NCBI GenBank assembly: GCA_965214095.1 | Contig: OZ243938.1 | Span: 2,112,001 to 2,176,000, forward strand | Direction: 5' to 3' | Source: Candidatus Poribacteria bacterium | Lineage (GTDB): Bacteria; Poribacteria; WGA-4E; WGA-3G | DNA: 64,000 bases | Shown here: positions 43,081 through 64,000 of the stretch, piece by piece | How positions within the stretch are numbered: position 1 is the stretch's first letter | How the letters are laid out: each line of letters begins with the position of its first letter | Program-made: the position numbers and the translations under genes | Notes under the pieces: generated by a model | Told to the model about the DNA's origin: nothing | Seen by the model: only the letters and a program-made list of their open reading frames with translations | The model's database searches: none

Positions 43081-44076
43081 TTAGTATGAATTCCACAAAT
43101 AGTTGAGATAGAATCCGACATCACCTTCACGATCGGTTATTCCAACCATTTGAACCCTTAAGTCTAAAAGTTCTGCGGATTCTGTTGGGTAGAAGAACTG
43201 GATACCTTTTTCGCCATCGGTTCCGATGAATTGTGCAAAACCTGTTATGTCTCCGTCCGTTAATTGTTTACCATTTATTGTAACTGTTACATTACTTTCA
43301 CTAAGCGTTGGAGGATTTGTCAGTGCTTTTCCCTCTGGGTAGTATATCCAGATAAGCCATCCATGTCCATCACTGGTGTTATCAGTAGGATCGGTATTAT
43401 CAGGATTATCGGCATCTGCAGGTGTATCATTGTTATTACTGTTATTATCATCACCGTTGTTGCCGTTGTTATTACCACCGTTGTTGCCGTTGTTATCATC
43501 ACCGTTGTTGCCGTTGTTATCATCACCGTTGTTGCCGTTGTTATTACCACCGTTATTGCCGTTGTTATTACCACCGTTATTGCCGTTGTTATTACCACCG
43601 TTATTGCCGTTGTTATTACCACCGTTATTGCCGTTGTTATCACTTCCGGGAGTATTCGTTCCCCTTTGAGTCTCGGCTTGATCTGCCTCTGCCAATGTCT
43701 CAACAAAGTCAGTGGTATCCCCTACCCTTTCGGCTCGCACAATTGGTTTGCCTTCATGATGGAACAGATAAACTGTTTTTTCTGGATAAATGTGGATGAT
43801 AGGTCCATTGGTATCTACCGCGCCATTTACAAGTGGGACAAGATCAATACAGGCGGAATCCGTGTCATTATGAATGCAATATCTCCCACCACGAATGGAG
43901 GTGAGATAATCGTCCACATCCGCATGTGTTAGCATTGAACCTGTAGATGAAATAATCGATCCCGTATGGGAAGGATCGGAACACCCTACAATACTGAAAA
44001 GAACAATTAGTATGCTACTGATGAATCCGAACAATAATAGTTGAATTCTTGACATGACACTCTGTAAGTTTTTCAC
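43081..44076 (-). CDS. lipoprotein with Asn/Gly low-complexity linker
   Basis: Lipobox IVGC; (GGNNNGNN)n; N-terminal domain paralogous to 44101-44784. Confidence 0.75.
   Translation of the reverse strand: MKNLQSVMSRIQLLLFGFISSILIVLFSIVGCSDPSHTGSIISSTGSMLTHADVDDYLTSIRGGRYCIHNDTDSACIDLVPLVNGAVDTNGPIIHIYPEKTVYLFHHEGKPIVRAERVGDTTDFVETLAEADQAETQRGTNTPGSDNNGNNGGNNNGNNGGNNNGNNGGNNNGNNGGNNNGNNGDDNNGNNGDDNNGNNGGNNNGNNGDDNNSNNNDTPADADNPDNTDPTDNTSDGHGWLIWIYYPEGKALTNPPTLSESNVTVTINGKQLTDGDITGFAQFIGTDGEKGIQFFYPTESAELLDLRVQMVGITDREGDVGFYLNYLWNSY
43440..43642 (-). repeat. 24-bp tandem repeat (GGNNNGNN / GDDNNGNN)
   Basis: ccgttgttattaccaccgttattg-type units x~8. Confidence 0.9.
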
Positions 44077-44100: not shown

Positions 44101-44784
44101 TTATAGCGGTTCTAACTTCAGAATATTCGTGTTATCATCAGAGTTGACGTTATCTGCACTGATATGGAAGGTTGCTGTGTTGCTGGGGATCAACCCATTG
44201 ACTTGAATCGTTATCTCTGCGACCGTCGTTTCAACGACAAATTGAACTCCACCCTCAATTTGTGTCGTTTGAGTAATATCAAGGTCTTTTTGATTGTTTG
44301 CGTCTATGGTTAATCCTTCTACAACTCTGACATTCATTCGATCAGTGGAATATATCTGGATAGTCCATCCTTCAGGAATGGGGGCAACGTTCAGATTATG
44401 TCCGGTTGAGGGTAAATTAACTTTACCTTCATTTTCTAATTGCTGCACGAGTTCTGTAGTATCCATTGTTCTTTTGGCTCGCAAAATAGGACTTCCTTGA
44501 TACTCAAATACATAAGCAACGTTTTCTGGATGCACATGGACAGTAGGTGTGTAACCTATATCTGCCCCATCAATCTCTATTTTATCCAGATCAAGTTTGA
44601 CACAAACGGAATCAAATCCGTCTTGCAGGCAAACGGTATCTTCACCTGTTGCATTAAGGTATGTATCTATGTGGTCAATAGAGAGGACCGGACCTGTATA
44701 AGGCGTCTCGGAACATCCTGTTATGCTAAAAATTATAATCAGAATACTACCGATTAAGGCTAATGATAAATGTTTTGTTTTCAT
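44101..44784 (-). CDS. hypothetical lipoprotein
   Basis: Lipobox ITGC; shares C-x5-DSxC, HxxPE and GxPIxRAxR..DTT with its downstream neighbour. Confidence 0.75.
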   Translation of the reverse strand: MKTKHLSLALIGSILIIIFSITGCSETPYTGPVLSIDHIDTYLNATGEDTVCLQDGFDSVCVKLDLDKIEIDGADIGYTPTVHVHPENVAYVFEYQGSPILRAKRTMDTTELVQQLENEGKVNLPSTGHNLNVAPIPEGWTIQIYSTDRMNVRVVEGLTIDANNQKDLDITQTTQIEGGVQFVVETTVAEITIQVNGLIPSNTATFHISADNVNSDDNTNILKLEPL

Positions 44785-45127: not shown

Positions 45128-46780
45128 TCAATACAACACATGCACCCGATTCTTACCACGCAATGTCTCATCAGGCATCACAATCGGTATCTCAACAATT
45201 GCAATAAGCATTCCATCAGCACTGATAGCAAGCGTATCATAAGGAAGCTGTCCTTCCGTGCGATAGGTATATTGGTATTTCGCCAACCCACTATCCTCAG
45301 CAGTTAAGTCAAACACCGAAACCCCATGCAGACTTTCATTCGGATTTTGACTCCGTTTAGATACAGCCAACGCAGCGTAACGTCCCTTTGCATCAACACG
45401 TAAACCTTGTGGCATATTCTCAAGTTTCCACTGCCAAGCCTTCTCACCATTCCACGAATAAGCAAACAACGTCATCCCGTTAGGATGTAACGTAGAGGGA
45501 CGTTGTGCCCCTTTCTGGAGGTGATACGGAATATATGTGTCACCAGTAACAAAGAGTGCAGCAGCATCCGTTGCTCCAATAGTGCCAGTCGTAGCAATAA
45601 TTGGAACATCACTGACCTCCATAGGTGTTGCCAAATTCTGCGTCCATATCGGTTCAGGACGATTCACATCAAATATGTAGGCACGTCCATCATCTGTTGT
45701 GACGTTAACATACTTGCCATTAGGAGACATACTTACACCACGCCAAAAGGTAACCCCTTCAAAATAGGGAGTAAGCGGTTCTATCTCTGCGTGCCACTTT
45801 TCTTCTCCCGTTTCTACATCAAGCACAGACAACGTTCCATTACCCTTACCACTCTCATCTGAAACAAGCGCGAGCATCTTCCCATCAGCACCCACATCAA
45901 ACCAACGAAATATCTTCTGCGTAGTTTCTTCACGAGGAAATTGCCATATAACATCCCCAGATTTTGCATCAAATCGATAGAACAGAGAACGTTTTTGTGG
46001 CGTATCGTTCTGTGTCCACGCATGTACACCGGCAACCAACAGATCACCGTTAGGCAGTGTCCGCATGCACGACTGACCGGGGTAACTCACCCACGCATAG
46101 ACGCTATCAGGATTGGTTGGTGTAGAAGTTTCAATATCATCTGCTGTTCGGTGTTTCCAACGAAACTTCGGTTTAGCACCAGTCAAGTCGTAGCAATAGA
46201 TAAATCCATCCGCCGCTTGTTCACCAACATAGAGCAGTGAACTGTCGGGACTAAATGCAACATGTCGCACATAACCTTCAGAGATACGCGTTTTCCAAAT
46301 CGTCTTACCAGTTATCGGTTGGACAATCGCAAGGTGTCCTTTATCTGTGGCAATAGCAAGTTTCGGTGTATCCGTTCCGTTATCAAGAGCAATGGAAGTC
46401 GGTTTTGCAGGTTGACGCAGATTCTCCATCAACGACAATAATCCATCTAATTCAATGGTTCTGATGAGATAAGAAACAGGTTTCTGTGGTGAAGTTGCTC
46501 CTGTGATACCCGTTCCTGAACGAAACCGATAACTTGTGTTAGGTTGCCATGAAAAGTTCAACAAAATGCGTTTATCATCAATTTTTCGTGATGAAACTGC
46601 TTGAAATGATGTCGTGTTCGGAGTGGATGCAACTTCAATTTTCGTGTCAAGTGCGTCTTTAGTTTCTGATTCAAGCACTACCCCTGTGCGAACCCAGACG
46701 ACGTTCAGTTCAGCCACCACTACACTGGCAGACAAACTAAATAACAATAATAAAAAAGAAAAAATGCGATTCGGTTTCAT
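45128..46780 (-). CDS. secreted PQQ/WD40-like beta-propeller protein
   Basis: Signal peptide; repeats such as TGKTIWK, FDAKSGDVIW, DVETGEEKW and VAFSPDS. Confidence 0.75.
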   Translation of the reverse strand: MKPNRIFSFLLLLFSLSASVVVAELNVVWVRTGVVLESETKDALDTKIEVASTPNTTSFQAVSSRKIDDKRILLNFSWQPNTSYRFRSGTGITGATSPQKPVSYLIRTIELDGLLSLMENLRQPAKPTSIALDNGTDTPKLAIATDKGHLAIVQPITGKTIWKTRISEGYVRHVAFSPDSSLLYVGEQAADGFIYCYDLTGAKPKFRWKHRTADDIETSTPTNPDSVYAWVSYPGQSCMRTLPNGDLLVAGVHAWTQNDTPQKRSLFYRFDAKSGDVIWQFPREETTQKIFRWFDVGADGKMLALVSDESGKGNGTLSVLDVETGEEKWHAEIEPLTPYFEGVTFWRGVSMSPNGKYVNVTTDDGRAYIFDVNRPEPIWTQNLATPMEVSDVPIIATTGTIGATDAAALFVTGDTYIPYHLQKGAQRPSTLHPNGMTLFAYSWNGEKAWQWKLENMPQGLRVDAKGRYAALAVSKRSQNPNESLHGVSVFDLTAEDSGLAKYQYTYRTEGQLPYDTLAISADGMLIAIVEIPIVMPDETLRGKNRVHVLY

Positions 46781-46817
46781 TGATAAATTTCCTCATAATA
46801 TAGACATAAAAAAGATA

Positions 46818-47088
46818 TATAGTGATATGTAAGAATACGTGCACACTCCTCGGTAGATGTGGTTTCCTAACCGCATCTATGAGACTGAACAAACACCGGT
46901 TCGGTTAGGAAACCGAACCATAGGCGTCAATTTAAGAGAATTACGCTATAATTCTAGGCTGGTAGGTTCGGTTTCCTAACCGAACCGGATCTTACGCGAG
47001 AACCTCTATGAAGGTATTTGGCACAAAGCCGGTTCGGTTAGGAAACCGAACCTACCGTCGTGTGTAAATAATTGTGGTTTTAACTATA
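46818..47088. mobile_element. TA-bounded REP-carrying MITE inside the B12 operon
   Basis: TATAGTGATATGTAAGAATACGTGCACAC...GTGTGTAAATAATTGTGGTTTTAACTATA with four palindromes; homologous to the 24560 unit. Confidence 0.7.
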
Positions 47089-47095
47089 AATATAT

Positions 47096-49018
47096 TCAAT
47101 CCGCCACGCGCCACAATCCACGTCCTAATCTTGCCCCTAAAAGCACACCCAAAAATGTATACGCAAAACCCTCAACAAAAATACGGAGCCATATATACCA
47201 GTCCGCGTAAAACAGACGGTAAAAGAGAATAGAGAGTTGAAAATCAACATACACGGTGACAGCATCGCAAATACCAAGCACAAGTGCCCATGCCAGTAGG
47301 CTTCGCCTTCGCACAAATAGAAATCCTGTTTCCAACAGCAAAATGCTTGTCCCTGTATAGATAATCGTCATCGGAGTGAAAAGTCCAAACGTCACAGCAC
47401 CCAGAAGTAGACGCACAGCAGAAACAAGCAGGATCACACCACCTTTATTGACCGTGTTTAGCCCACTATTGTCCTGCTTAGCTTTAACGCCAGGAGCACC
47501 GTAAATATAGATTAACAATGCCGTGAGCAAAGCATAATATAACGTCTCATTGACCAATCCTGTTAACAGAACTGAGACTGGACCAAGAATTACGCGGATA
47601 AAGTTCAGAAAAAGGGTTGACGGCACTACGACTGCCACGAATATCGTTGTGCCGAACAGCGCAATTACAATCAGTTGCTTCGTTGAAAAACGCGCAAAGA
47701 ATTCCCGATGATACCGGAGTAGAACGATAAATCCAGTACAACTCGCTAAAATAGCCAATCCACTCACAAATAGGGCATGTCGGTTTGGCACAACGATATG
47801 CAGCAGTCTTTTGGTCCTGAGGACAGTGGTATCACTCCCCCAAATTTTTACCGAGATTTCGCGCTCATATTCACCTGCGACAGCAAGTTGTGGATGAAAA
47901 TAGATAGGTAAAGGAATAGAAGTGATTTCTCTCGGTGCTAAACTTGCAAAACTAATACTCTGATCTGTTCCTGCATTGACCGCATCAGGAGGTGCAAGAA
48001 ACGGTACTGCTTTTCCAGTGTTCAGATCACGGTTGATTGATGAAACTACGACATGGATTGTCTCTTCACCTTGATTGTTAAGATGGACTGTCTGATAAGT
48101 AGTAGGGGTATATTCGTCTGTTTGCTGTGCACCAAGCCAACTAAACAACGGACGTGGATGGTAAATCGTGTCTTTTCGTTGCCTCAGATCTACTGTTCCT
48201 GCTTCATCTGTTGGCATATCTATTGATGCAATAGAAATATGTTTCTCAATCTCAGGAATAGATGCGACCCGCAATTGAACTGTCGCTTGCTGCTTCCATG
48301 TTTCCCTATCACCAGTTGTCCATCGGACATTACCTGATATGCTCTGTATATTAGGGGGATTCGTTGGACTTATAGGAGAATGAGGCACATCTATTTCCAG
48401 TTCACGATGCCACACTTCTGAAGCAACTTTAAACTCTCCCGTTGTTGAAAGACAGGTTTGTTCATCTGTTGTTTCATCAACCTCCCATTCCGTAGGAATA
48501 CGCTTTATACCCAACGATGAAGGTATACACAACTCTAAATCAAAAGTAGTCGGCACATTACCGTTTGTTACAATAACGGTCGCTGTCATCACGCTTCCCC
48601 GCAGAAGCAGTGCTTTCTGAGTGCTAACTTTAGAACTCTGTGTGTCCAAATTCCTTGCAACACCGTAAGGTATAGCAATCTCAAAGTTGCCACGTGCATA
48701 TTCAAGCGGTGCAGACACTGTTTGAACGACAACATCTCCCGAGGATAGAGTTGCTTCAAACTTATAGGTTTCTCCAGCATCCCATTCAAAATAAACCGAT
48801 TCTATCTGACGTGGCTGCACAGGAAAATCAAGTTGAGCAACCTTGTTTCCATCAGAATTGTAGGCAGAAATCTGTTTTATCGGTACTTGGTTGGCAATCT
48901 GTACTTTGGCACCAAGCGGGAAGAAGGTAATCTGCCATGAGAGTGGTTCATCTGGCTTTTCCTGCCTACAACCAATGAAAAATATTGAAAGAAGCAGCAG
49001 AAATCCCCATTTACCCAT
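47096..49018 (-). CDS. lipoprotein-signal protein with large extracytoplasmic region and C-terminal multi-TM (ECF S-component-like) domain
   Basis: Lipobox FIGC; ~410 aa soluble region; then ~6-7 TM segments including FSTKQLIVIALF. Confidence 0.65.
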   Translation of the reverse strand: MGKWGFLLLLSIFFIGCRQEKPDEPLSWQITFFPLGAKVQIANQVPIKQISAYNSDGNKVAQLDFPVQPRQIESVYFEWDAGETYKFEATLSSGDVVVQTVSAPLEYARGNFEIAIPYGVARNLDTQSSKVSTQKALLLRGSVMTATVIVTNGNVPTTFDLELCIPSSLGIKRIPTEWEVDETTDEQTCLSTTGEFKVASEVWHRELEIDVPHSPISPTNPPNIQSISGNVRWTTGDRETWKQQATVQLRVASIPEIEKHISIASIDMPTDEAGTVDLRQRKDTIYHPRPLFSWLGAQQTDEYTPTTYQTVHLNNQGEETIHVVVSSINRDLNTGKAVPFLAPPDAVNAGTDQSISFASLAPREITSIPLPIYFHPQLAVAGEYEREISVKIWGSDTTVLRTKRLLHIVVPNRHALFVSGLAILASCTGFIVLLRYHREFFARFSTKQLIVIALFGTTIFVAVVVPSTLFLNFIRVILGPVSVLLTGLVNETLYYALLTALLIYIYGAPGVKAKQDNSGLNTVNKGGVILLVSAVRLLLGAVTFGLFTPMTIIYTGTSILLLETGFLFVRRRSLLAWALVLGICDAVTVYVDFQLSILFYRLFYADWYIWLRIFVEGFAYTFLGVLLGARLGRGLWRVAD

Positions 49019-49055
49019 AACAGAATACCTTCTATACCATTACACATAAACTACA

Positions 49056-50354
49056 CTAAAAATGCTGAGCAACGAGGACCAGGTCTAAAATATTAACCTC
49101 ACCATCCCCATTGACATCCCCAACGAGACCTTCACCACTCTCACCGAAATCCTGAGCGACAAGTACGAGATCCTTTATGTCAACAAAACCATCATCGTTC
49201 ACATCTTCATCCCGAGGAACAACTTGAGCAAGTGCCACTTTATCTGTTCCGTGTCCAAGTTGATAGGTTTTGAGAAGTGTCTCATCCATCCCCATGACAA
49301 GGAGTGTAGACAGACCACCACCTGTCCAGTCAGGTTTAGCGATGTAGAGATTACCATCATCCCCAAAAGTCATTCCCGAACCACCAGCAAACTCTTCTAA
49401 TGTGTTATCTTTATCACGAATCCACTCTTGCGATGGCACATCATAAATTAGCAGACCAGGACTCATCCAACCGCCTTGAATAAACAACTGTTTCTCTGAG
49501 TTGATGACAAATGAACCCGGAGTCATTTTCAAATCAACCGTATTAGTAATTTCATCAGTTGTTGCATCAATAAAGACAAGGTTTCCAGTAATATCACTGT
49601 AATTACCTGTCGTCTTTACAATCACTGTGGAATCCCCATCGTTGAGAATACCACCTGCATTGATAGGCACCGAGATCGTCTTTATCACAGAGTCTGTCTG
49701 CGTATCTATGACAGAGACAGTACTCTGATGATAAACGCTTTTGTTTGCTACCGCATCCCACTCCCAAGCAGGATTGGTGACATACGCTTTGCCGTTCAGA
49801 ATCGTGATGCCTGTCGTTTTATTGAAAGACGCATCACTTATGATTTTCGTTACGCTTCGACTACCAATATTAACGACATGCACCTGATGCGTGTTATCAC
49901 AGGTTACATAAATCTTATTCGAGTTCACAAGTGCAAGCTGCTGTGGGTATGATCCTGTTTGAATCGATATGACACCGATAATCTCCCGCCGTTCAAGGTT
50001 GACCATTACTATGCTGTCATGTGTGATATCAGATAGCCAATCGAAATTGGGTATAAAAGCCAGATGTCCATGAATCAGAATGTCACTCGGAACACCGCCA
50101 ATACTAATGACTTCACTATCAACAGCACGATTGAGATTCGGTTCATCAAGATCAACAATGGAAAGGGAAGAAGTGATATTCCAGTCGTCCTTATCCAATG
50201 CATTTATAACTACTGCAAGATTTTCAACTTCTGATTGAGAAAAACCAGAACTGACAAGGAGGGTGAAAAACATCGTCCCAATAAGTAGTAACGATGTCAG
50301 TTTATGGTTGAAACGGCATGAAAGATGTCGCCTAAAGAAAAAATGTCTGTTCAT
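49056..50354 (-). CDS. secreted YncE/YVTN beta-propeller with C-terminal dockerin-like domain (BtuG-like candidate)
   Basis: GGAGG RBS before the ATG at 50354; KIYVT, GKAYVTN, STVSVIDTQTDSVIKTI; EDVNDDGFVDIKDLVLVA..GDVNGDGEVNILDLVLVA. Confidence 0.8.
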   Translation of the reverse strand: MNRHFFFRRHLSCRFNHKLTSLLLIGTMFFTLLVSSGFSQSEVENLAVVINALDKDDWNITSSLSIVDLDEPNLNRAVDSEVISIGGVPSDILIHGHLAFIPNFDWLSDITHDSIVMVNLERREIIGVISIQTGSYPQQLALVNSNKIYVTCDNTHQVHVVNIGSRSVTKIISDASFNKTTGITILNGKAYVTNPAWEWDAVANKSVYHQSTVSVIDTQTDSVIKTISVPINAGGILNDGDSTVIVKTTGNYSDITGNLVFIDATTDEITNTVDLKMTPGSFVINSEKQLFIQGGWMSPGLLIYDVPSQEWIRDKDNTLEEFAGGSGMTFGDDGNLYIAKPDWTGGGLSTLLVMGMDETLLKTYQLGHGTDKVALAQVVPRDEDVNDDGFVDIKDLVLVAQDFGESGEGLVGDVNGDGEVNILDLVLVAQHF

Positions 50355-50549
50355 TAATACCTCCGTAATGAAACAAGAAACCCCTGCTCTCTCTGAGAAG
50401 ACAGGGGACAAGGCGACACTTTTATGTGAAATTAATCCTATTTTCAAGGATAGATAAAATACCTTATATCAGTATTTTTATTTCATTTCGTCAGGATAAT
50501 GTCGTGCTTTGTTCCACCGCTTTCCCGCGAAAGCAGACGCGTGAAACAC

Positions 50550-50780
50550 AATCCAGGCAGGTCTCCTGACTTCCGATTCTTTTGCTATAGATGACAAGTT
50601 CAACTTGTGTTACAAAAGTCCGCTGTACCTTCCCATCAACCGTTGACAGTGGTCTTTTCCAGCGGAAATTCCCATTGAGGAATAAATCGTTTACAGTGGC
50701 GGGGCCGTGGCGGAATCTCACCGCGCTTCCCTATTCTCCGGGGTTTGTCGCAACTCTTGCGAACCGGCACCTGAACCGTT
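50550..50780 (-). ncRNA. cobalamin (AdoCbl) riboswitch
   Basis: Minus strand: AGGTGCC..AATAGGGAAGCGCGGTGAGATTCCGCCACGGCCCCGCCACTGTAA..CCACTG..GGGAAGG..AAGTCAGGAGACCTGCC (B12 box). Confidence 0.95.
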
Positions 50781-50803
50781 CAAATATTCAAATGTATTTG
50801 AAA

Positions 50804-50832
50804 ATTATATCATACTGCACAACTTATTGCAA
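50804..50832 (-). promoter_or_regulatory. promoter upstream of the riboswitch
   Basis: TTGCAA-17nt-TATAAT with extended -10 TGn. Confidence 0.7.
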
Positions 50833-53574: not shown

Positions 53575-55455
53575 TTGAAAAACCTATATACACAAAAAAA
53601 CATCATAACATCCACCTTACTACTCCTCATCCTCACAATCACACCGCACGGACAAGCAGCGGACAAAAGCGTCCAACTTCCAGACGGAGCAACCGCGCGC
53701 CTCGGTAAAGGACGCATCTACACCATGCAATACACCGAAGATGGTACACGTCTTGCACTCGCAACATCAATGGGAATATGGCTCTATGACACCATCAATT
53801 TTACAGAAATATACCTACTCAAGAAACATAGAGATAATGTCATGAATATGGCTTTTAGTCCAGATGGCAAAATCCTCGCAACTGCTGACCGAAGGGGCAC
53901 AATCCACTTATGGAATACAGACACAGGAGAACACGAACTTGAACTATCAGATGACGAAGGTGTTGTCAAGATCATTTTCAGCAATGATGGTGCGATATTT
54001 GGCATGATAACTGTAAGAGGATCCGTGAAGTTATGGGACACGCTCACTTGGGAAGAGAAAGAGAAGTATAGTAATATCCTCAACTTTCGCGCACAAGGCA
54101 TTTTCAGTACGGCACTCAGTCCAAATAGTTTTGACATCGCAGCCGGGGATCAAAACGGACTTGTCACAATCTACGACCCTTTCTCAAACACCAAAAAGCA
54201 TGAATTGGAAGGACTTCACCACATAGTAAATCCAGTCGTATTCAGTTCCGATGATAGTCTCATTGTAGCAAGCAATTTCAACAGTATCTGCTGGTGGGAC
54301 ATAGAGAAAGAAGAAATGATGCATCTGATTGGCGATGACTTGTATGTGAGGGCACTGACCTTTAGTCCGGATGATAGTCTAATAGCAAGTGGAAGCGTTC
54401 GCGGAGATATACGTTTGTGGGATGTTAATACAGGTGAACAGCGACAAGAGATGAAAGGGCACACAGCCGAAGTCATTGATATCGCCTTCAGTTCCGATTT
54501 ACGCACAGTTGCCAGCGCGAGTGTGGATGGGAGTGTGCGTATCTGGGATGTCTTTTCCGGCAAAGAACTCCATGTATTTGATGGACATTTCGGCAATTTC
54601 ACCTGTTTAGATGTGAGTCCTGATGGGAAAACAGTGGTTGCCCCAACGCACGACCTCACCGTCTGTTTGTGGAATCTGGACTCTGCCAAACTGGACACAA
54701 CGTTTGACAAAGAAGGGTTCTATGGTGTCGCTGAAGTTGTCTTCAATCCCAATGGCAAAACAATCGCCACAGCCAGTTATGGAAAGTTTATCAGCATGTG
54801 GGATCGTGAAACAGGTAAACAAATCAGCAGGTTAGGTGGACACAAAGGGCATGTATTTTCCGCTGCCTTCAGTCCAGATGGCAAGAAGCTTGTTACTGGC
54901 AGCGATGATACGACCGTTCGACTGTGGGATACGGAGACATATCAAGTGAAGCATATCCTGAAAGGGCATGAACTTGGGGTCACAAGTGTCGCTTTCAGTC
55001 CAGACGGCACAACAATCGCCAGTGGCGGCAAAGATGCAACCGTCAGAATCTGGGATGCAAACACCGGTGCGGAAAAGTATGTGCTGACAGGACATGAGTC
55101 GGGTGTGTTAGGAGTCGCCTATCGTCCGGACGGCACGACCCTTGCTACCGTTGCAGAAACGGAAATCATCATGATGTGGGACATAACCACAGGTAAAGAC
55201 AGTAACACTATAATGAGCGAAGGGTCTGATTTCTCAAGTATCGTCTTCCATCCGGATGGCGATGTGGTAGCGACTGGAAGTCGTTCAGGTGTTGTCCAAC
55301 TTTTCAACATCAACTCAGGATTATCGTTGCGCAAGTTTTCAGGACATCTGAAGCAAGTAACGGATCTTGCCTTTGCTGCAAATGGCGATAAACTTATCAC
55401 CCGTTCAGACGATGGCGTTCTGTATGTATGGGATGTTGCGAATGTAGATCATTAG
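53575..55455 (+). CDS. secreted WD40-repeat protein
   Basis: AGGAG RBS, signal peptide, LPDGATARLGKG, many GH..V..VAFSPDG..ASG..D.TVRLWD repeats. Confidence 0.9.
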   Translation: MKNLYTQKNIITSTLLLLILTITPHGQAADKSVQLPDGATARLGKGRIYTMQYTEDGTRLALATSMGIWLYDTINFTEIYLLKKHRDNVMNMAFSPDGKILATADRRGTIHLWNTDTGEHELELSDDEGVVKIIFSNDGAIFGMITVRGSVKLWDTLTWEEKEKYSNILNFRAQGIFSTALSPNSFDIAAGDQNGLVTIYDPFSNTKKHELEGLHHIVNPVVFSSDDSLIVASNFNSICWWDIEKEEMMHLIGDDLYVRALTFSPDDSLIASGSVRGDIRLWDVNTGEQRQEMKGHTAEVIDIAFSSDLRTVASASVDGSVRIWDVFSGKELHVFDGHFGNFTCLDVSPDGKTVVAPTHDLTVCLWNLDSAKLDTTFDKEGFYGVAEVVFNPNGKTIATASYGKFISMWDRETGKQISRLGGHKGHVFSAAFSPDGKKLVTGSDDTTVRLWDTETYQVKHILKGHELGVTSVAFSPDGTTIASGGKDATVRIWDANTGAEKYVLTGHESGVLGVAYRPDGTTLATVAETEIIMMWDITTGKDSNTIMSEGSDFSSIVFHPDGDVVATGSRSGVVQLFNINSGLSLRKFSGHLKQVTDLAFAANGDKLITRSDDGVLYVWDVANVDH

Positions 55456-56107: not shown

Positions 56108-56756
56108 TTATTTTCTAATCAACATCTTACGCGTTGCAGCATAGTGAGCAGTAGTGAGGGTGTAAAAATACACACCGCTGGCAACCTTTTCACCGAATTC
56201 GTTTTTACCATCCCAATATGCGGCGCGGGATCGGTGTTGATAGATACCCGCAGGTTGATGTCCAAGCGTCAACGTCCGCACCAGTGTGCCGTTGAGTGTA
56301 TGGATGGATAACGTAACTTCAGCATCTTTTGCTAAGTGATACGGTATCCACGTCTCTGGGTTGAACGGGTTGGGGTAGTTAAACAGGAGTACGGTTTCCT
56401 TCGGTGTCAAAGTCTGTAATAGATTTTCCAGAAAGCGTAGACCTTGCTGAAAGTTGGGGTCTGGTAAGTTGAGTTGACGTGCTTCTTTTAACCATGCTGT
56501 CACCGTTGCACGTGGAGGCAGATCATCAGGATGGAGACTTGATATGGCAGGTGCAGCAGTGTCCGCGCTCCCAATTGCCATTGCGACGAGTGTCAAATCC
56601 ACGATATTGACGACACCGTCTGCGTTAACATCGGCTGCATGTTTGCCTATTTTGCCGAAATTCACTGCAATAAAGGAGAGATCTAAGATGTTGACGACAC
56701 CATCCTGATTCACATCTTCGTGCATGAACATTGGGACGATTATGTCTGTGGATGCA
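56108..56756 (-). pseudogene. C-terminal remnant (dockerin + FlgD/T9SS-like CTD) next to the IS right end
   Basis: EDVNQDGVVNILDL, ADVNADGVVNIVDL, NYPNPFNPETWIPY..TRKMLIRK. The ORF-track TTG start lies inside the IS end, and there is no signal peptide. Confidence 0.75.
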
Positions 56757-56761
56757 TTCAA

Positions 56762-58024
56762 CTACCCAAGCCTAAAGGCCTTTGGATTGTTAAGAGGTTC
56801 AAACAGCGATAACTGAATGATTTTCTTCTCCATAGCCTTTGTTACTTCGTTCTTGTTTCTCGTTTCATAGAGGGTGGCACCCCACCGCTCTCCACGACGG
56901 GCAGTAGCTGCCCGAAAAAGTCCGTTTATTGCAGCGTTGTGGTCTCGGTCAAGCGAGTGTCCACAATATCCGCAGTTGAATGTCCGCACCGATAGCGATA
57001 ACTTTTTCGGTGCTTTCTGTCCGCAGCAAGAGCAAGTTTGCGAGGTGTTCTTCGGATCAACTTGGTGGAAATGGAAACCGTCTCTTTCGGCTATGTTCCC
57101 ACACCACTCAAAGAAGTGTGCCCAAGACGCATCGCTGATACTCTTGCTGAGGTGTTTGTTCTGAACCATATTGGCAGTATTTAGATTTTCGGTTACCAAG
57201 ACATTATTTTTCTTATGATGGTAGAGTTTGTAAACGAGTTTACCAATAAAGTCTCTGCGTCTGTTTACAGTGCGCTCCTGATGTAAAGCGAGTTTGTGGT
57301 GTTGTTTCTTTCTACGGTGAGAACCTAACTTTTTACGAGAAAGGTCTTTAGCGTGCTTGCGGAGTAATCCCTCCGCTTTGCGATACCAACGCGGGTTGTC
57401 AACTTTTTCACCCTCAGATGTCGTCAAATAGTGGTTCGTGCCGACATCAACGGCAACAGCACGGGTCGGTTCCACTTTCGGCGTATCACCGATGTCGCAG
57501 GAGATATGTGCATACCACCCGGTTGCTTTTTTCACGATAGTAACCTCTTTCGGGTCACCTTGAATGGGACGGGACATCCGCATTTTGATTTCACCGAGTT
57601 TGGGCACAATCAGTCTATCTAAACGGTGCTTCGTTGGACGAATAGGATTTTGACGAATGCCTGCTTTGTTCTTACGTAGACTCCAGGTGAGAGAACGGAT
57701 ACGTTTGCGATAGCGTGGGAATCCCGGTTTTTCACCACCTTGTTTGACACGACGGAAAAAGTTCGCAAAAGCTTTGTTCACACGTTGAAGTGCGTGTTTC
57801 TGAAACTCTTGCGGCACAATGTCGAAGTCTTCATACTTTGCACGTGCTTGTGTCAGAAGTCGACACTGTTCAGCATAACTTACAGAACGTTTCTCTTCTT
57901 CATACGCACGCATACGATTCAGTCGCGCTGAGTTGTGTAACTCACACAAATGCGAAAGATATTGATATAACTCGGTTTCTTGCGTAGGTGTCGGATACAA
58001 GCGGTATTTGAACGTTAAAACCAT
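56762..58024 (-). CDS. tnpB: RNA-guided endonuclease TnpB
   Basis: FKYRLYPT, GFPRY, RuvC AVDVG / VTENL / DRDHNAA, Zn finger TSQTCSCCG..FNCGYCG. Confidence 0.95.
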   Translation of the reverse strand: MVLTFKYRLYPTPTQETELYQYLSHLCELHNSARLNRMRAYEEEKRSVSYAEQCRLLTQARAKYEDFDIVPQEFQKHALQRVNKAFANFFRRVKQGGEKPGFPRYRKRIRSLTWSLRKNKAGIRQNPIRPTKHRLDRLIVPKLGEIKMRMSRPIQGDPKEVTIVKKATGWYAHISCDIGDTPKVEPTRAVAVDVGTNHYLTTSEGEKVDNPRWYRKAEGLLRKHAKDLSRKKLGSHRRKKQHHKLALHQERTVNRRRDFIGKLVYKLYHHKKNNVLVTENLNTANMVQNKHLSKSISDASWAHFFEWCGNIAERDGFHFHQVDPKNTSQTCSCCGQKAPKKLSLSVRTFNCGYCGHSLDRDHNAAINGLFRAATARRGERWGATLYETRNKNEVTKAMEKKIIQLSLFEPLNNPKAFRLG

Positions 58025-58440
58025 TATTTACCTCGCTGGTTCTCTACATACTTGCGAAGCACTTCTAAAGTGATACCCCCTATGGAGGCGATAAATTTAG
58101 AACGCGTCCAAAGCGAGGGAATACGAGATTTCAGAGAGGGATACTCATCACGCAACACACGAGAAGTCCAACCTTTGATCCTGCCAACGACAGATGCAGG
58201 AGCGAGTTGGGGACTGCTACTCATCAGAATATGAACATAGTCATCCATCACTTCACAGGCGTGCACTTCATACCCATAAACCTCTTGTTGTTCATAGATC
58301 AGTGTTTTGAGCCGTTCAGCAATAGGAGAGACAAGCACAGGACGACGATATTTTGTGCACCAAATCACATGGTAATCACAACTATAGACTAAAGAATGAG
58401 TTGATTTGTAGGTAGAGGGTTTTTCTTTAATTTCTAACAT
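58024..58440 (-). CDS. tnpA: Y1 transposase TnpA (HUH motif altered to YVH)
   Basis: YHVIWCTKYRR, DDYVHIL, IKGWTS, LWTRS, KYVENQ. Confidence 0.92.
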   Translation of the reverse strand: MLEIKEKPSTYKSTHSLVYSCDYHVIWCTKYRRPVLVSPIAERLKTLIYEQQEVYGYEVHACEVMDDYVHILMSSSPQLAPASVVGRIKGWTSRVLRDEYPSLKSRIPSLWTRSKFIASIGGITLEVLRKYVENQRGK

Positions 58441-59556: not shown

Positions 59557-61491
59557 TTATAGAGTTGAATCAAGGTCCCACAAATATATGATACCAACTC
59601 TTGGCTTGTTGCTATTCGAATGGAGGTTCAGACTGATAAGTTTTTTCCCATCTGAAGTAAATGCCACCTTCTTAACCCCTTTCCGATTCCCCTTGATCGT
59701 CTGTATAGGTTTCATTGTGTCGGCATGATAGATAGTAATCTCTCCAACTGTATCACCAAACGCAAGCGATTTTCCATCGGGACTGAAAGCAACGCTGGAT
59801 ATCGGTGTTTTGTGCTTTACCAATACACTCTTTCGCTCACCAGTGTCAACATCCCACAGATAGATATCTTCGGTATGTCCCGCAGTGGCAATGACTCTTC
59901 CATCGGGACTGAAGGCAAGTTCGGCAACACTTTTTCCATGTTCCGGGATGACTCTCTTTAACTCAGCAGTGTTCGCATCCCATAGATGAACGGTCCTATC
60001 TAGGCCACCACTTGCGAGCGTTTGTCCATCCGGACTGTACGCAATACACATCACAGAATCCGTATGTCCATTGAACGTTTGATGCGTTACACTTACCTCA
60101 GCTGAATTGAGATCCCACAAACGGACAGTCTGATCTTTACTACCACTTGCGATCGTTTTTCCGTCTGGACTGAAGGCGAGACATGAGACATGCGAAGTAT
60201 GTCCTCTTAAGGCATTTATACGCTGAGCTGGGTTCACACCTTTTAGCCGGATGATATATGGGAATTCCCCAATAGCCGTAGTTTCACCATCCGGACTGAT
60301 CGCAATAGCTGAAGCAGTATAGCCGTGTCTCACGAGTTTGTCCTCTAATGCACCTGATGTTGCATCCCAAGTATAGACGGATCTGAGTGATGACAGACTT
60401 GTAATCGTTTTTCCATCGGCACTTAAGGCAAAGGATTCGAATTCATCGTGATCTTCTGCTACTGTCTGTATCAGTGCACCGGAGATGATGTTCCAAATAC
60501 GGAGACTTCCATCATCGCTACAACTTGCCAGCGACCGCTGATCGGGACTGAATGCGATATCAAGCACATTTTCACGATGTCCTTGAAGCGTTCTTTTATG
60601 CTCACCAGTGCTTGTATCCCACAAAAAGATAGTGCCATTGCTGTACCCAGCGGCTATTAGACTGCCATCTGCACTGAACCTGATTTTATGCACACCCAGT
60701 CTCCGAGTAAGATTGTGTAGCTGCTGACCTGTTTCCGTATCCCACAGATAAACATTGTGGTTCCCATCACTTGTTACCAACTTGGTTCCATCCGGACTGA
60801 ACACAATGTTCCTAGCTCCAAATTTGTGTCCAGCGAGTTTATGTTTGTGCTCTCCTGTTTCCGTATCCCATAAAGAGATCGTCTCCCGTGTATTTCCGAC
60901 AGCGAGTAGAGAGCCATTAGGGTTCAACGCAATGATGCGATGATAAACAGTAATTGTCTTGTCATCATTTTTCTTATCATCTTTGAAGAGTGTTTTCTTT
61001 ATATCACCCGTTTCAATATCGTACAAGTTGATACCACTGTCTAACACATCACTTTTAGCATAAGTTTTCCCATCCGCACTGAAAGCGAAACTATAAGCAA
61101 CACCCTTCCAAGGCAATTCAATCTTTGTTGTGCCTGTATCCGTATCCCACAGCACTACATCAGCTTTAGAGTGTCCGTATCTTGCGAGTAAGTTGCCATC
61201 TGGTCTAAACGCTATGTGTTTTGAATACATAGCCTGTTTTTTCAGCACTTTTATGGGTTGGAATGTGGTTGTATCGTATATCCATATCCCTGTAGGACTT
61301 GAAGATGCAAGCAACTTGCCATCTGGCGAATAGGAGATATCATCAATTTGTCCTTTACCGATCCGTGCGATCGCGCCTTCGGGTCGTGCCAATGATGTGT
61401 TGAAAATCTCTTGTGCAATGCTTGCGGGTGTGTGGTATATCAACAGGTATAGTAGCGTTATTATTGTGAGTAGATGTGATTTTCTTAACAT
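59557..61491 (-). CDS. secreted WD40-repeat protein
   Basis: GGAGG RBS, signal peptide, PEGAIARIGKG, many WD40 repeats; paralog of 53575-55455. Confidence 0.9.
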   Translation of the reverse strand: MLRKSHLLTIITLLYLLIYHTPASIAQEIFNTSLARPEGAIARIGKGQIDDISYSPDGKLLASSSPTGIWIYDTTTFQPIKVLKKQAMYSKHIAFRPDGNLLARYGHSKADVVLWDTDTGTTKIELPWKGVAYSFAFSADGKTYAKSDVLDSGINLYDIETGDIKKTLFKDDKKNDDKTITVYHRIIALNPNGSLLAVGNTRETISLWDTETGEHKHKLAGHKFGARNIVFSPDGTKLVTSDGNHNVYLWDTETGQQLHNLTRRLGVHKIRFSADGSLIAAGYSNGTIFLWDTSTGEHKRTLQGHRENVLDIAFSPDQRSLASCSDDGSLRIWNIISGALIQTVAEDHDEFESFALSADGKTITSLSSLRSVYTWDATSGALEDKLVRHGYTASAIAISPDGETTAIGEFPYIIRLKGVNPAQRINALRGHTSHVSCLAFSPDGKTIASGSKDQTVRLWDLNSAEVSVTHQTFNGHTDSVMCIAYSPDGQTLASGGLDRTVHLWDANTAELKRVIPEHGKSVAELAFSPDGRVIATAGHTEDIYLWDVDTGERKSVLVKHKTPISSVAFSPDGKSLAFGDTVGEITIYHADTMKPIQTIKGNRKGVKKVAFTSDGKKLISLNLHSNSNKPRVGIIYLWDLDSTL

Positions 61492-61833: not shown

Positions 61834-64000
61834 CTACTTCACAATCAACATCTTACGCGTCGCAGAGAAATCGCCAGCGACGAATTTAATGAAATAGATG
61901 CCAGCAGAAACCTTCTCACCGACACCGTTTCTACCATCCCAATACGCCGCGCGACCCCGACTCTTGTAATAACCAACAGGCAATTGTCCAAGAGCAAGCT
62001 CACGCACAACGTCACCTTTCATATTGTAGATGATGAAAGAAACATCAGCAGATTGTGCCAACTGAAACGGAATCCACGTCTCTGGATTAAACGGATTCGG
62101 ATAATTGACCAATACCTGCGTTTCCAAGGGCTTATCCGATATACTCACGGCCGCAATCATGGGGACAGGTACATTCTCAGGTAGCACTTCAATAGGTTCA
62201 CGACTAACGAGATGACCATATCCGGTATGTCCTGGATGATAAACAATAACCTGTTCAATAAATGCGCTAACTGCATTTACATCTTCTGCACTACCCCTCT
62301 CTACAGACAATGTCTCGCTTTCAGTGCCACCGACAGGAATAGTTAGTGTATAGTCTCTAGTGCCTGTTACACCGTCTTGGACTGTTGCCCCGCCTGTGAC
62401 TACTACAAGTATGTTCATTGTGTAAGGTGCACCCGGTTTTAAAACCGCTTTAAACTTACCGTCTGACACTTTTTCAAGGACAGGATTAAGTCTTAAGAAT
62501 GTATCAGGATCACCATTGGATAAATGAAGATACTTCAATGCGGTAAGACCTACGAATAAACCATCTGGAATTGCGGTTAACTGGTTGCTACTCAGGTCAA
62601 GAGTTTCCAGTGATGTGAGTACATTAAATTCGGTACCAGACAAAGAAGTCAATGGATTATCCGACAATACAACTGAAGTCAACTGCGTTAGACTATCAAA
62701 AAAGCCAGAAGGAATTGAGGTTAACCCAATATCAGACAGGATAATTTCGGTGAGCGAGGTTAAATCATCAAACATACCCACTGTGAGCGTTAATGGGTTA
62801 CTTGACAGGTTGATTGATGTCAAAGACGTGATAGCAGACGCAGCATCAGGTATTCCAGACAAACCGTTATCAGCAAGGATTAGGGATGTCAGTGACGAGA
62901 GATCATCAAACAAATCTGATGGCAACGAACTGAAATCAAGTGAACTCATATCAAGCGTTGTCAACGCTGTCAAGTTCTCAAATATATCTGATGCCAGCGA
63001 TGTTATAGGGTTATCTGATATATTTAGATATGTCAACGCTGTGAGTGCATCAAATATATCTGAATGCAATGATGTCAATTCATTTTCGCTCAAATCAAGC
63101 GAGGTTAATATTGTCAACGAATTAAAAATATCCGAGGGTAATGACTCCAGTTCGTTTTCACTCAGATCAAGCTTTTCCAGCACTATCATACTATCAAAAA
63201 CACTTGAGTTTAATGACTGAAGATCGTTGCCATGCAAATCAAGACAGGTCAGTGAACCCAATATATTGAATACCGTTGCCGGCAACGTTCTCAACTTGTT
63301 ATTTGAGAGGTTCAGATTAGTAAGTCTTGGTAGACTGTTAAAGATAGCAACCGGCAATGACTCTATCTGATTCCCATCCCAAATGTTTTCCGCTGACAAA
63401 TCAAGGGTTGTGAGAGATGACAAATCAGCAAAAATACCAGCTGGAAGAGATGTCAACAGATTGTCCTGTAGGTATAACGTTTCCAAAGCAGTTAAACCAT
63501 TAAAATCAATCATTTTCAGATTCGTAATCTCTTTTGATTGCACATCAAGTGTGGTGATACTTTCAAGGTGCGTGGCAGTTATTTGATCCGCTCTGGTTAC
63601 ATTCGGGTCTCCAATCGCAGCAATAATAGCATCAATCACCGCTTGTGTTCGGTCGCCAATTTCGACCGTCTCTGGTTCTACATCAGTGACATTGATTGTC
63701 ACTGGGATGCTTACACTTGGATTCGTGTTGTCAGTCACCGATACAGTTACCGAATAACTTGATTTTACTTCAAAGTTGAGGCTATCCTTTGTCTTTAGCT
63801 GCCCGGTTGAGTCGTCAATATCAAAGGAGTTCATATCAGTGCCACTGAGCGTATACGTCAAGTTATTGTTTTCAGGATCAGTCGCAGAGACAGGAGAACC
63901 GATGTTGATATCTGAGGCACTATTTTCCGCAATACTTCGCGTCGCTGTATTGCCAAGCTCATCAAAGACAGGGGGTTCATTGACATCAGTCACGGTTATC
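61834..64000 (-). CDS. cadherin/LRR protein with CTD (5' end beyond window)
   Basis: Cadherin repeat, DRTQAVIDAIIAA cap, ~14 LRRs, NYPNPFNPETWIPF..TRKMLIVK. Confidence 0.88.
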   Translation of the reverse strand, partial: ITVTDVNEPPVFDELGNTATRSIAENSASDINIGSPVSATDPENNNLTYTLSGTDMNSFDIDDSTGQLKTKDSLNFEVKSSYSVTVSVTDNTNPSVSIPVTINVTDVEPETVEIGDRTQAVIDAIIAAIGDPNVTRADQITATHLESITTLDVQSKEITNLKMIDFNGLTALETLYLQDNLLTSLPAGIFADLSSLTTLDLSAENIWDGNQIESLPVAIFNSLPRLTNLNLSNNKLRTLPATVFNILGSLTCLDLHGNDLQSLNSSVFDSMIVLEKLDLSENELESLPSDIFNSLTILTSLDLSENELTSLHSDIFDALTALTYLNISDNPITSLASDIFENLTALTTLDMSSLDFSSLPSDLFDDLSSLTSLILADNGLSGIPDAASAITSLTSINLSSNPLTLTVGMFDDLTSLTEIILSDIGLTSIPSGFFDSLTQLTSVVLSDNPLTSLSGTEFNVLTSLETLDLSSNQLTAIPDGLFVGLTALKYLHLSNGDPDTFLRLNPVLEKVSDGKFKAVLKPGAPYTMNILVVVTGGATVQDGVTGTRDYTLTIPVGGTESETLSVERGSAEDVNAVSAFIEQVIVYHPGHTGYGHLVSREPIEVLPENVPVPMIAAVSISDKPLETQVLVNYPNPFNPETWIPFQLAQSADVSFIIYNMKGDVVRELALGQLPVGYYKSRGRAAYWDGRNGVGEKVSAGIYFIKFVAGDFSATRKMLIVK

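Follow-up and report, generated by a model that had tools for sequence, protein, structure and literature searches.

The locus analysed here lies in a Candidatus Poribacteria bacterium (assembly GCA_965214095.1), at positions 45128 to 50832 of a 64,000-nucleotide (nt) stretch of contig OZ243938.1 (positions 2,112,001 to 2,176,000 of the forward strand), and this whole stretch is referred to as the window. The locus comprises a cobalamin (vitamin B12) riboswitch and three genes, here named g1, g2 and g3, which are interpreted below as part of a probable corrinoid uptake system. The initial annotation had assigned to this region a promoter, a clear B12 riboswitch, three co-oriented envelope genes and a terminal palindrome, and had reported no btuB/C/D/F, cbi/cob or ATPase gene. 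The observation was checked item by item, and each listed element was present at its coordinates, the promoter as a consensus match only. No btuBCDF, cbi/cob or ATPase gene was found among the flanking open reading frames (ORFs) that were scanned. The features are as follows, with positions counted from the first letter of the window.

50832..50804, minus strand: promoter-like site of the sigma-70 type, TTGCAA, 17 nt, extended -10 element TGnTATAAT (consensus match)
50789..50539, minus strand: aptamer of the cobalamin riboswitch (RF00174), 251 nt long and carrying insertions when compared with the 189-position model
50407..50370, minus strand: candidate expression platform, a GC-ended imperfect hairpin and then a U-rich run, read from the sequence
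50360-50364, minus strand: GGAGG site, separated by 5 nt from the start codon (ATG, 50354) and by another 5 nt from the hairpin and U-rich run on its upstream side
49056-50354, minus strand: g1, secreted beta-propeller of the YncE/YVTN type with a C-terminal type I dockerin, 432 residues
47096-49018, minus strand: g2, lipobox-like signal, immunoglobulin-like (Ig-like) ectodomains, linker transmembrane helix (TM0) and six-helix S-component-like domain, 640 residues
46816-47084, no strand: repeat insert (one or more copies) in the g2-g3 spacer, from blastn high-scoring segment pairs and contigs of a related strain
45128-46780, minus strand: g3, secreted beta-propeller of PQQ/WD40-like type that also has a beta domain at its N-terminus, 550 residues
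45050-45079, no strand: perfect palindrome with a loop of 4 nt and a 13-bp stem, 49 nt downstream of the stop codon of g3, possible terminator

The three ORFs were confirmed on the minus strand, with gaps of 37 nt between g1 and g2 and of 316 nt between g2 and g3 (46781-47095). The palindrome occurs once in the genome (blastn). Its T-run is on the plus strand and the tail on the operon strand is only moderately U-rich, which leaves it a possible terminator with a weak U-run. Two further ORFs with a lipobox, g4 (44101-44784) and g5 (43081-44076), lie on the minus strand just downstream of the palindrome. They had no Pfam match and no relative in any locus fetched for this work, and they were rejected as members of the system on these grounds.

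The presence of the riboswitch was evaluated by an Rfam scan. RF00174 matched at E 4.5e-21 with 90.4 bits, the gathering score being 31.5, and the match covered model positions 1-189 of 189. The genome yielded no RF00174 match besides this one (50789..50539), so a chance match is not a reasonable explanation. The promoter-like site scored 10/12 and was located 15 nt upstream of the aptamer; such sites were not enriched in the region (20 found versus 21.3 expected from shuffles). The leader of 184 nt ends in the hairpin with its U-rich run and in the GGAGG site, and its minimum-free-energy fold did not stand out (z -1.37). The hairpin at 50407..50370 may act as a terminator. In 20 related genomes that were drawn and the genome studied here, an RF00174 match was present in 21 of 21, with one match in 19 genomes and two matches in 2.

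The product of g2 had been described beforehand as a lipoprotein with a large soluble region and a multi-helix membrane domain, the latter proposed to be a fused S-component of an energy-coupling factor (ECF) transporter. The N-terminal hydrophobic stretch ends in GC, as in a lipobox, and the C-terminal third of the protein is hydrophobic. Relatives were numerous, with matches to 446 clusters at 90% identity and to 353 representatives at 50% identity; 68 of the latter matched at E <= 1e-30, mostly had 550-700 residues and shared the same layout. An AlphaFold model built on 51 diverse relatives had a predicted local distance difference test score (pLDDT) of 90.1 and a predicted template modelling score (pTM) of 0.80. 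In this model, beta-sandwich (Ig-like) domains were placed at about 22-104, 106-254 and 258-411, forming an ectodomain of about 22-411, and were followed by the linker helix TM0 (413-435) and a six-helix domain (446-639), in agreement with the layout first described. The basic residues cluster on alternate loops, a distribution that fits a predicted topology with the ectodomain outside, TM0 running inward and the six-helix domain having both ends inside, as in canonical S-components. The folds of the ectodomain were generic, that is, Ig-like, pilin-like or cohesin-like.

A Foldseek search with the whole g2 model retrieved Ig-like multidomain proteins only, and the membrane domain (residues 405-640) was therefore modelled alone (pLDDT 92.3, pTM 0.88). 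When 48,161 representative chains were searched for this fold, ECF S-components or their close relatives, including NikM, CbiM and BtuM, filled all of the 15 best rows (Z 10.6-7.7, 147-180 residues aligned), and the first unrelated fold appeared at Z 6.7; because Z values below about 13 are common among helical bundles by shared arrangement alone, the fold by itself was not enough to call the domain an S-component. The best match was RibU (5kbw, Z 10.6, root-mean-square deviation 3.3, 160 residues aligned), and the remaining rows were 4huq, 4hzu, 3p5n, NikM (4m5c, Z 9.8), 5edl, CbiM (5x3x, Z 8.7), BioY, two FolT, two ThiT, BtuM (8ovv, Z 8.1, root-mean-square deviation 3.7, 152 residues aligned) and two PanT structures. 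The structure comparison thus came out in favour of the fused S-component that had been proposed.

The gene context of g2 relatives was explored across phyla. Two overlapping scans, each taking one genome per species and not merged with the other, yielded confirmed relatives in 342 and in 297 genomes. A search with one distant relative as query gave no locus, and an alignment of relatives was used instead. The fetched loci numbered 159, of which 117 were poribacterial (107 distinct) and 42 came from other lineages. These 42 were labelled Planctomycetota, Verrucomicrobiota, Lentisphaeria, Hydrogenedentota, Fibrobacter, Myxococcota, Deltaproteobacteria, Nitrospirae/Thermodesulfovibrio, Deferribacteres, Firmicutes, Actinomycetes and some Rickettsiales. 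Neighbours were counted by Pfam scans of nine loci and local searches over all 42, and the counts are lower bounds because the ORF caller was a simple one that misses a gene wherever a longer spurious frame overlaps it. The search for ECF partners suggested by the initial annotation was successful: the transmembrane protein EcfT (Pfam CbiQ) or a fused two-domain ATP-binding cassette (ABC) ATPase, EcfAA', stood beside the g2 relative in 31 of the 42 loci. A g3 relative was adjacent in 23 of 42, CobN in 11 of 42, the corrinoid-salvage protein CbiZ in 6 of 42 and ChlI/ChlD-like chelatase subunits in 5 of 42. At least one of these neighbours occurred in 37 of 42 loci, and 3 of the 5 loci without any were contigs of 2.5-4 kb. 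In seven loci (L087, L089, L095, L109, L146, L147 and L160), the longest ORF over EcfAA' extended back into the region of the g2 relative, which may reflect either a fusion of g2 with the ATPase or an artefact of spurious frames.

In the cultured bacterium Dethiosulfatarculus sandiegensis, the genes stand in the order riboswitch, TonB-dependent receptor, CobN, EcfAA', g3, g2 and EcfT, with CbiZ adjoining the operon on the opposite strand; the riboswitch lay 4.2 kb beyond the fetched flank. This set would constitute a complete route across the envelope, in which g3, g2 and the ECF module would stand where BtuF-BtuCD would otherwise be. The gene context settles the predicted assignment of the g2 family to ECF systems and points to corrinoids as the probable substrate.

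Among the poribacterial loci, g1 and g3 were each found in 108 of 117, and the order g1-g2-g3 was kept in 108 of 117. A homologue of the riboswitch, located by nhmmer with the aptamer of the window, was upstream on the same strand in 110 of 117 loci (107 of the loci being distinct), and 2 of the 7 loci without a match were cut by contig ends. The RF00174 scan of the other lineages covered 41 of the 42 loci, with L094 left out, and gave matches in 9 of 41, which were upstream on the same strand in 7 (L087, L088, L097, L109, L131, L147 and L160) and downstream in 2 (L104 and L124); the remaining 32 of 41 had no riboswitch in the fetched 6-kb flanks. The expectation that homologues would be linked to riboswitches was accordingly borne out in Poribacteria and in part of the other loci.

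The energising parts of the transporter had been expected to be encoded elsewhere, and the genome of the organism itself (5.25 Mb in 4 contigs, 94.5% complete) was searched for them. A single EcfT (C1:2981753-2982610) matched four g2-linked EcfT proteins with 133-199 bits, and a single EcfAA' double ABC ATPase of 501 residues (C1:2991131-2992636) matched four g2-linked EcfAA' proteins with 331-478 bits, the next best ABC protein reaching 107-132 bits. One orthologue of each was therefore identified, as expected. The two genes are 8.5 kb apart, split by giant genes with leucine-rich repeat (LRR), Big_1 and dockerin domains (region C1:2981753-2994600; loci L002, L164 and L165), and they lie about 820-830 kb from the operon. 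The EcfAA' gene is directly downstream of a gene for a B12-binding radical S-adenosylmethionine (SAM) protein with DUF4070. S-components of the ECF_trnsprt and BioY families, the only two families screened, were not found in this genome, and g2 is consequently the only candidate client seen for EcfT and EcfAA'.

The B12 economy of the organism was examined in the same genome. Three B12-dependent proteins were found, namely MetH, the B12-binding radical-SAM protein and a small corrinoid protein beside a RACo activator. CobS and CbiC gave no matches in this 94.5% complete genome, nor did CobN and CbiZ, and CobS was found in none of the 21 genomes (this one and its relatives). Only one weak match to FecCD (the BtuC type) was obtained, at 28 bits. 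The picture suggested by these sequences is that of a cobamide importer with one B12-regulated locus.

The product of g3 matched PQQ_2 with 43.4 bits (cut-off 27.6) and begins with a signal-like stretch, consistent with its earlier description as a secreted PQQ-like propeller. Its profile matched only generic designer, WD40, PQQ and BamB propellers among PDB sequences and gave no functional lead. Besides the 108 poribacterial loci, g3 was present in at least 23 of the 42 others, and in 14 loci it ended between -34 and +104 nt from the start of g2, abutting or overlapping g2 (<= 0 nt) in 9. This constant pairing across phyla suggested a complex, which was modelled from g2 residues 22-412 and g3 residues 25-550. 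The complex scored 0.87, whereas the best of 3 controls scored 0.00. Of 80 solved complexes, 58 attained that mark, as did 2 of 110 mismatched pairs, counts that hold only roughly for a model made with its own alignments. The model runs shared at least 54% of contacts, and the pLDDT of the partner was at least 85. The modelled interface involves g2 domains 1-2 together with the N-terminal domain and the late blades of g3 (g2 residues 35-78, 115-206 and 355-394; g3 residues 81-103 and 387-541). The model supports binding of g3 to the predicted ectodomain of g2. In one locus of a Firmicutes metagenome-assembled genome (L121:4014-5831), the g3 relative bears a Cu_amine_oxidN1 domain at its N-terminus, an alternative means of anchoring.

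The start of g1 was taken as the ATG with GGAGG 5 nt upstream, and most relatives among the matches listed also have 432 residues. Dockerin_1 (PF00404) was found at residues 383-431 with 29 bits against a cut-off of 22.9, and weak matches to YncE and DUF5074 were also obtained, in line with the YncE propeller with a dockerin first reported. The resemblance to BtuG, which had been raised for g1 in the initial annotation, was evaluated with a profile from 19 sequences searched against PDB sequences. The profile matched BtuG1 (8PTD, 8PTF and 8BLW) in a single stretch of about 250 residues (E 1.7e-16 to 2.4e-16), BtuG3 (8PUJ, 8OKV and 8P97) at E 1.5e-9 to 2.1e-9, and the BtuG2 group (8BMX, 8BAI, 8BAZ, 3DSM, 8BN0 and 8BMY) at E 7.1e-9 to 9.1e-9. 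In the available parts of the source articles, most of these codes belong to BtuG1, BtuG3 or BtuG2 with cobalamin or cobinamide or in a complex with BtuB (PMC10404256; bioRxiv 10.1101/2024.02.16.580637); 8BN0 does not occur in the text available from either. The proposed likeness was thus upheld by matches to solved B12-binding propellers. Among the best 120 of 562 matches to g1, every one with a named source came from Poribacteria, and no g1 relative was found in the 42 non-poribacterial loci. According to the accessible text of Wexler et al. (PMC6143338), BtuG homologues were not detected by BlastP outside Bacteroidetes, and g1 is for this reason regarded as a remote relative of BtuG. Binding of B12 by g1 is predicted from this relationship.

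The genome contains 23 Cohesin (PF00963) matches in large proteins, 22 of them over the cut-off. The simplest reading is that g1 would be tethered through its dockerin to a surface scaffold bearing cohesins, since it is not a lipoprotein, has no adjoining receptor gene, ends in a dockerin and shares the genome with these 23 matches; the partner itself is putative. Dockerin proteins at several of the examined loci, together with the cohesin matches, suggest an extensive cohesin-dockerin surface system. Direct binding of the g1 dockerin to domain 2 of g2 (106-254; window ~48257-48703) is conceivable from the model, as this domain resembled cohesins at Z 9.4-11.3 (2vo8 11.3, 4dh2_C 10.5 and 6kgc_A 9.9). 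Pilin domains tied with these at Z 11.3-12.0 (3kpt 12.0), and the genome offers 23 ordinary cohesin matches; the pairing was kept as a lead only.

On this evidence, the operon is most probably, with a probability of about 0.72, the B12-repressed portion of a system that takes up corrinoids (cobamides) by means of a non-canonical ECF transporter. The route put forward in the initial annotation, capture by a propeller and import through an S-component fused to a soluble region, was graded as supported, with binding and transport predicted from sequences and models. In this mechanism, a fall in cellular cobalamin would lead the riboswitch to permit the expression of g1, g2 and g3. The secreted BtuG-like g1 protein, tethered by its dockerin to a cohesin-bearing surface protein, would capture cobamides from the surroundings, and the corrinoid would cross the outer membrane by a route not encoded at the locus. 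It would then be received by g3 bound to the Ig-like ectodomain of g2 and be handed to the C-terminal S-component domain. This domain, with the single EcfT and the single fused EcfAA', would finally import the corrinoid at the cost of ATP. The substrate, the order of hand-over and the outer-membrane step are the predicted parts of this scheme.

A broader claim is given about even odds, namely that g2 and g3 would represent a class of ECF transporter not described before and spread across many phyla. The Ig-like ectodomain (~390 residues) and the propeller would form a periplasmic receiving station for corrinoids, replacing BtuF-BtuCD behind a BtuB-type receptor, and the rule that ECF transporters have no extracytoplasmic receptor would be broken. 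In Poribacteria, the linkage to the T and A genes would have been lost and a BtuG-like propeller tethered by cohesin and dockerin would have been gained, the first such B12-capture propeller outside Bacteroidota.

Several observations weigh against the corrinoid importer as described. Its central protein lacks a sequence link to known S-components: g2 had no Pfam or NCBIfam match, and its profile gave nothing better than E 0.44 against PDB sequences. Trep_Strep (E 0.0019) and ABC_cobalt (E 0.012) each matched one of the 51 relatives below threshold and are leads only; a cluster of the protein atlas in which 28% of the members carry PF09819 (score 0.84) is likewise a lead only. In structure, the top Foldseek match of the membrane domain was the S-component 5edl at E 0.031, no match reached E <= 0.001, and the cobalamin S-component CbrT scored only Z 5.4. 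As for g1, its best PDB match was not a BtuG but the archaeal S-layer YVTN propeller 1l0q (E 8.2e-21, over three repeated stretches), its signal-like N-terminus has no cysteine lipobox at the end, and no TonB-dependent receptor was present among the flanking ORFs scanned near it. EcfT, EcfAA', CobN and CbiZ were found within 6 kb of the operon in 0 of the 117 poribacterial loci, so the pairing of the T and A proteins with g2 in Poribacteria is a prediction. Outside Poribacteria, an upstream riboswitch within 6 kb was seen in only 7 of 41 loci. The apparent lack of B12 synthesis and salvage is based on four markers and an incomplete genome, and two short MetE-like genes are present, by which B12 may not be strictly essential.

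The alternative explanations differ in what they dispute. One of them leaves the function of the transporter untouched and denies that the locus is one unit: g3 would be transcribed alone or be uncoupled by the repeat, and the riboswitch would govern only g1 and g2. The reason for considering it is the 316-nt spacer, which contains hairpin-forming repeats, one of them registered as terminator-like at 46920..46897. The spacer gave 971 blastn high-scoring segment pairs across the 5.25-Mb genome and is mostly an inserted copy of an abundant repeat; the repeat (46816-47084) resembles a miniature inverted-repeat transposable element with palindromic sub-units. Contigs of a related strain join 46815 directly to 47085, skipping 269 nt of repeat, and the median g2-g3 spacer is 103 nt in relatives, where the gene order is conserved as described above. 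These contigs came from the RNA libraries of 4 metatranscriptome runs of one study, with a related strain 90-99% alike; they cover the leader and g1 and bridge g1-g2 in 3 runs and g2-g3 in 3 runs. Such contigs can include DNA, and a contig does not equal a single transcript, a further point that counts against the proposed operon; stretches such as 45197-45984 and 47955-48545 had no coverage, from which no conclusion was drawn. The contigs therefore lend weak support to expression and to a compact ancestral operon, and the co-transcription of g1-g2-g3 is read from two lines of evidence only, the spacing and these contigs. With g3 and g2 abutting or overlapping in 9 loci of other phyla and the complex model favouring a physical g2-g3 pair, an uncoupled g3 is unlikely.

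The other alternatives concern the substrate. For the g2 family as a whole, the main rival is an importer of cobalt or another metal ion like CbiMNQO/NikMNQO, its riboswitch being explained by the use of cobalt in making B12. Cobalt transporters are also under cobalamin-riboswitch control, NikM and CbiM were among the fold matches, the neighbouring T gene matches Pfam CbiQ, and the CobN (11 of 42) and ChlI/ChlD (5 of 42) neighbours would fit a cobalt system equally well, which is again a weakness of the corrinoid assignment. This explanation fits poorly here, and it is judged very unlikely for the present operon. Cobalt uptake controlled by B12 would have no purpose in an organism where the B12-synthesis markers were not found, CbiZ accompanies g2 relatives in other loci, a TonB-dependent receptor heads the operon of D. 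sandiegensis, and g1 resembles the B12-binding BtuG. Moreover, CbiM and NikM ligate the metal with a free N-terminus, whereas the S-domain of g2 (from ~446) is preceded by about 440 residues of signal, ectodomain and TM0. A 390-residue ectodomain with a propeller also seems to exceed the apparent need of an ion. A different substrate (another tetrapyrrole, such as haem or a metal-free corrinoid, or an unrelated solute) or an envelope role other than import (sensing, export or surface remodelling) is considered quite unlikely. It draws on the facts that the g2 family has no characterised member, that CobN-like chelatases are also carried by haem-uptake loci, that 32 of 41 non-poribacterial loci lacked a riboswitch in their 6-kb flanks, and that the ectodomain folds are generic and g3 matches generic propellers only. 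It has to be set against a riboswitch of a class that is ligand-specific and is present here as the only copy in the genome, and against the linkage to ECF T and A genes in 31 of 42 loci, which indicates uptake, since ECF transporters are importers. Furthermore, B12-dependent enzymes are present with no recognisable BtuCDF and no synthesis markers, so some B12 importer must exist, and the operon is the only B12-regulated locus.

The surroundings of the operon in the window contain other genes of the cell surface and a mobile element. Three giant ORFs of 3924, 2715 and 2498 residues at 12693-41748 on the plus strand have cadherin, LRR, Big_9 and PKD domains, end in C-termini like FlgD_ig/Por_Secre_tail and are surface proteins of a eukaryote-like kind. 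An IS200/IS605 pair on the minus strand (56762-58440) encodes a Y1 transposase of 138 residues and a TnpB/Cas12f-like OrfB of 420 residues. Genes at 53575-55455 (plus strand), 59557-61491 (minus strand), 61834-63993 (minus strand) and 56108-56761 (minus strand) encode two large proteins with WD40 repeats, one LRR/cadherin protein and a small protein with dockerin and FlgD_ig. Giant cadherin/LRR, WD40 and dockerin proteins of this sort are in keeping with an origin in Poribacteria.

To our knowledge, it is still not understood how most bacteria take up B12. The g2 family, which has no Pfam or NCBIfam model, would fill a gap in genome-based predictions of B12 dependence if it is a true corrinoid importer, and its relatives span Planctomycetota, Verrucomicrobiota, Myxococcota, Desulfobacterota-type and Nitrospirota-type lineages, Firmicutes, Actinomycetes and Poribacteria. 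For sponge symbionts, Poribacteria would be consumers of cobamides and not providers, and a sole B12 regulon devoted to uptake would give a handle on vitamin exchange in the holobiont. If true, an S-component fused to an ectodomain and paired with a propeller would alter the textbook picture of ECF transporters. The full operon is carried by the cultured D. sandiegensis, which brings experiments within reach.

The proposed system was finally compared with known ones. ECF-CbrT is the ECF-type B12 transporter of Lactobacillus delbrueckii (eLife 2018, PMC5997447; PDB 6FNP); as described in the available part of that article, it imports cobalamin and cobinamide and consists of an S-component, EcfT and two ATPase domains (PMC5997447). 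The g2 system shares with it the S-component-like fold and, in relatives, the position beside EcfT/EcfAA' genes. It differs in that g2 has no detectable sequence similarity to CbrT and only a low fold score (Z 5.4). Furthermore, CbrT is a bare membrane protein (chain 6fnp_E, 132 residues listed), whereas g2 also has a signal resembling that of lipoproteins, three Ig-like ectodomains, one more helix and a dedicated propeller partner. BtuG1-3 of Bacteroides thetaiotaomicron are lipoproteins of the cell surface whose propellers bind B12 (PMC6143338, PMC10404256 and bioRxiv 10.1101/2024.02.16.580637). Like btuG, g1 encodes a propeller of the YncE type, homologous by profile, in a cobalamin-riboswitch operon. 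BtuG, however, is lipid-anchored and caps the BtuB of the adjoining gene, whereas g1 has a plain signal-like N-terminus, a type I dockerin and no receptor gene nearby.

BtuM works without an ECF module. The membrane domain of g2 matched this protein, which has a cobalamin-binding S-component fold, at Z 8.1; BtuM has no ectodomain, whereas the g2 family has one and is linked to EcfT/EcfAA'. In the text available from its description, BtuM is a predicted membrane transporter (Nat Commun 2018, PMC6072759; PDB 8OVV). The resemblance to BtuB-BtuF-BtuCD, the canonical B12 route of Gram-negative bacteria, is one of organisation: the g2 system is predicted to share with it riboswitch control, passage across the outer membrane, a receiver in the periplasm and an ATP-driven step at the inner membrane. 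The canonical route uses a type II ABC importer and a free BtuF, whereas the predicted g2 machine is of the ECF type and its predicted receiver is a propeller with an ectodomain fused to the transporter. The CbiMNQO/NikMNQO systems carry accessory, partly periplasmic components (NikK and NikL). They are comparable in being ECF systems with such extra components, and the CbiM and NikM folds matched g2 at Z 8.7-9.8; the substrate of CbiM/NikM is a metal, whereas the S-domain of g2 has no free N-terminus and belongs to a host without B12-synthesis markers. In the literature that was searched, with supplements and subscription journals outside its coverage, no S-component with a 390-residue ectodomain and a propeller partner was described, nor was this operon. 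PMC8620254 was considered as a prior description and set aside, as its available text concerns ordinary CbiMNQO and BtuBFCD genes. Taken together, the system resembles ECF-CbrT combined with BtuG-like capture, and by the defining features of the CbrT, BtuM and BtuG families it stands outside them.

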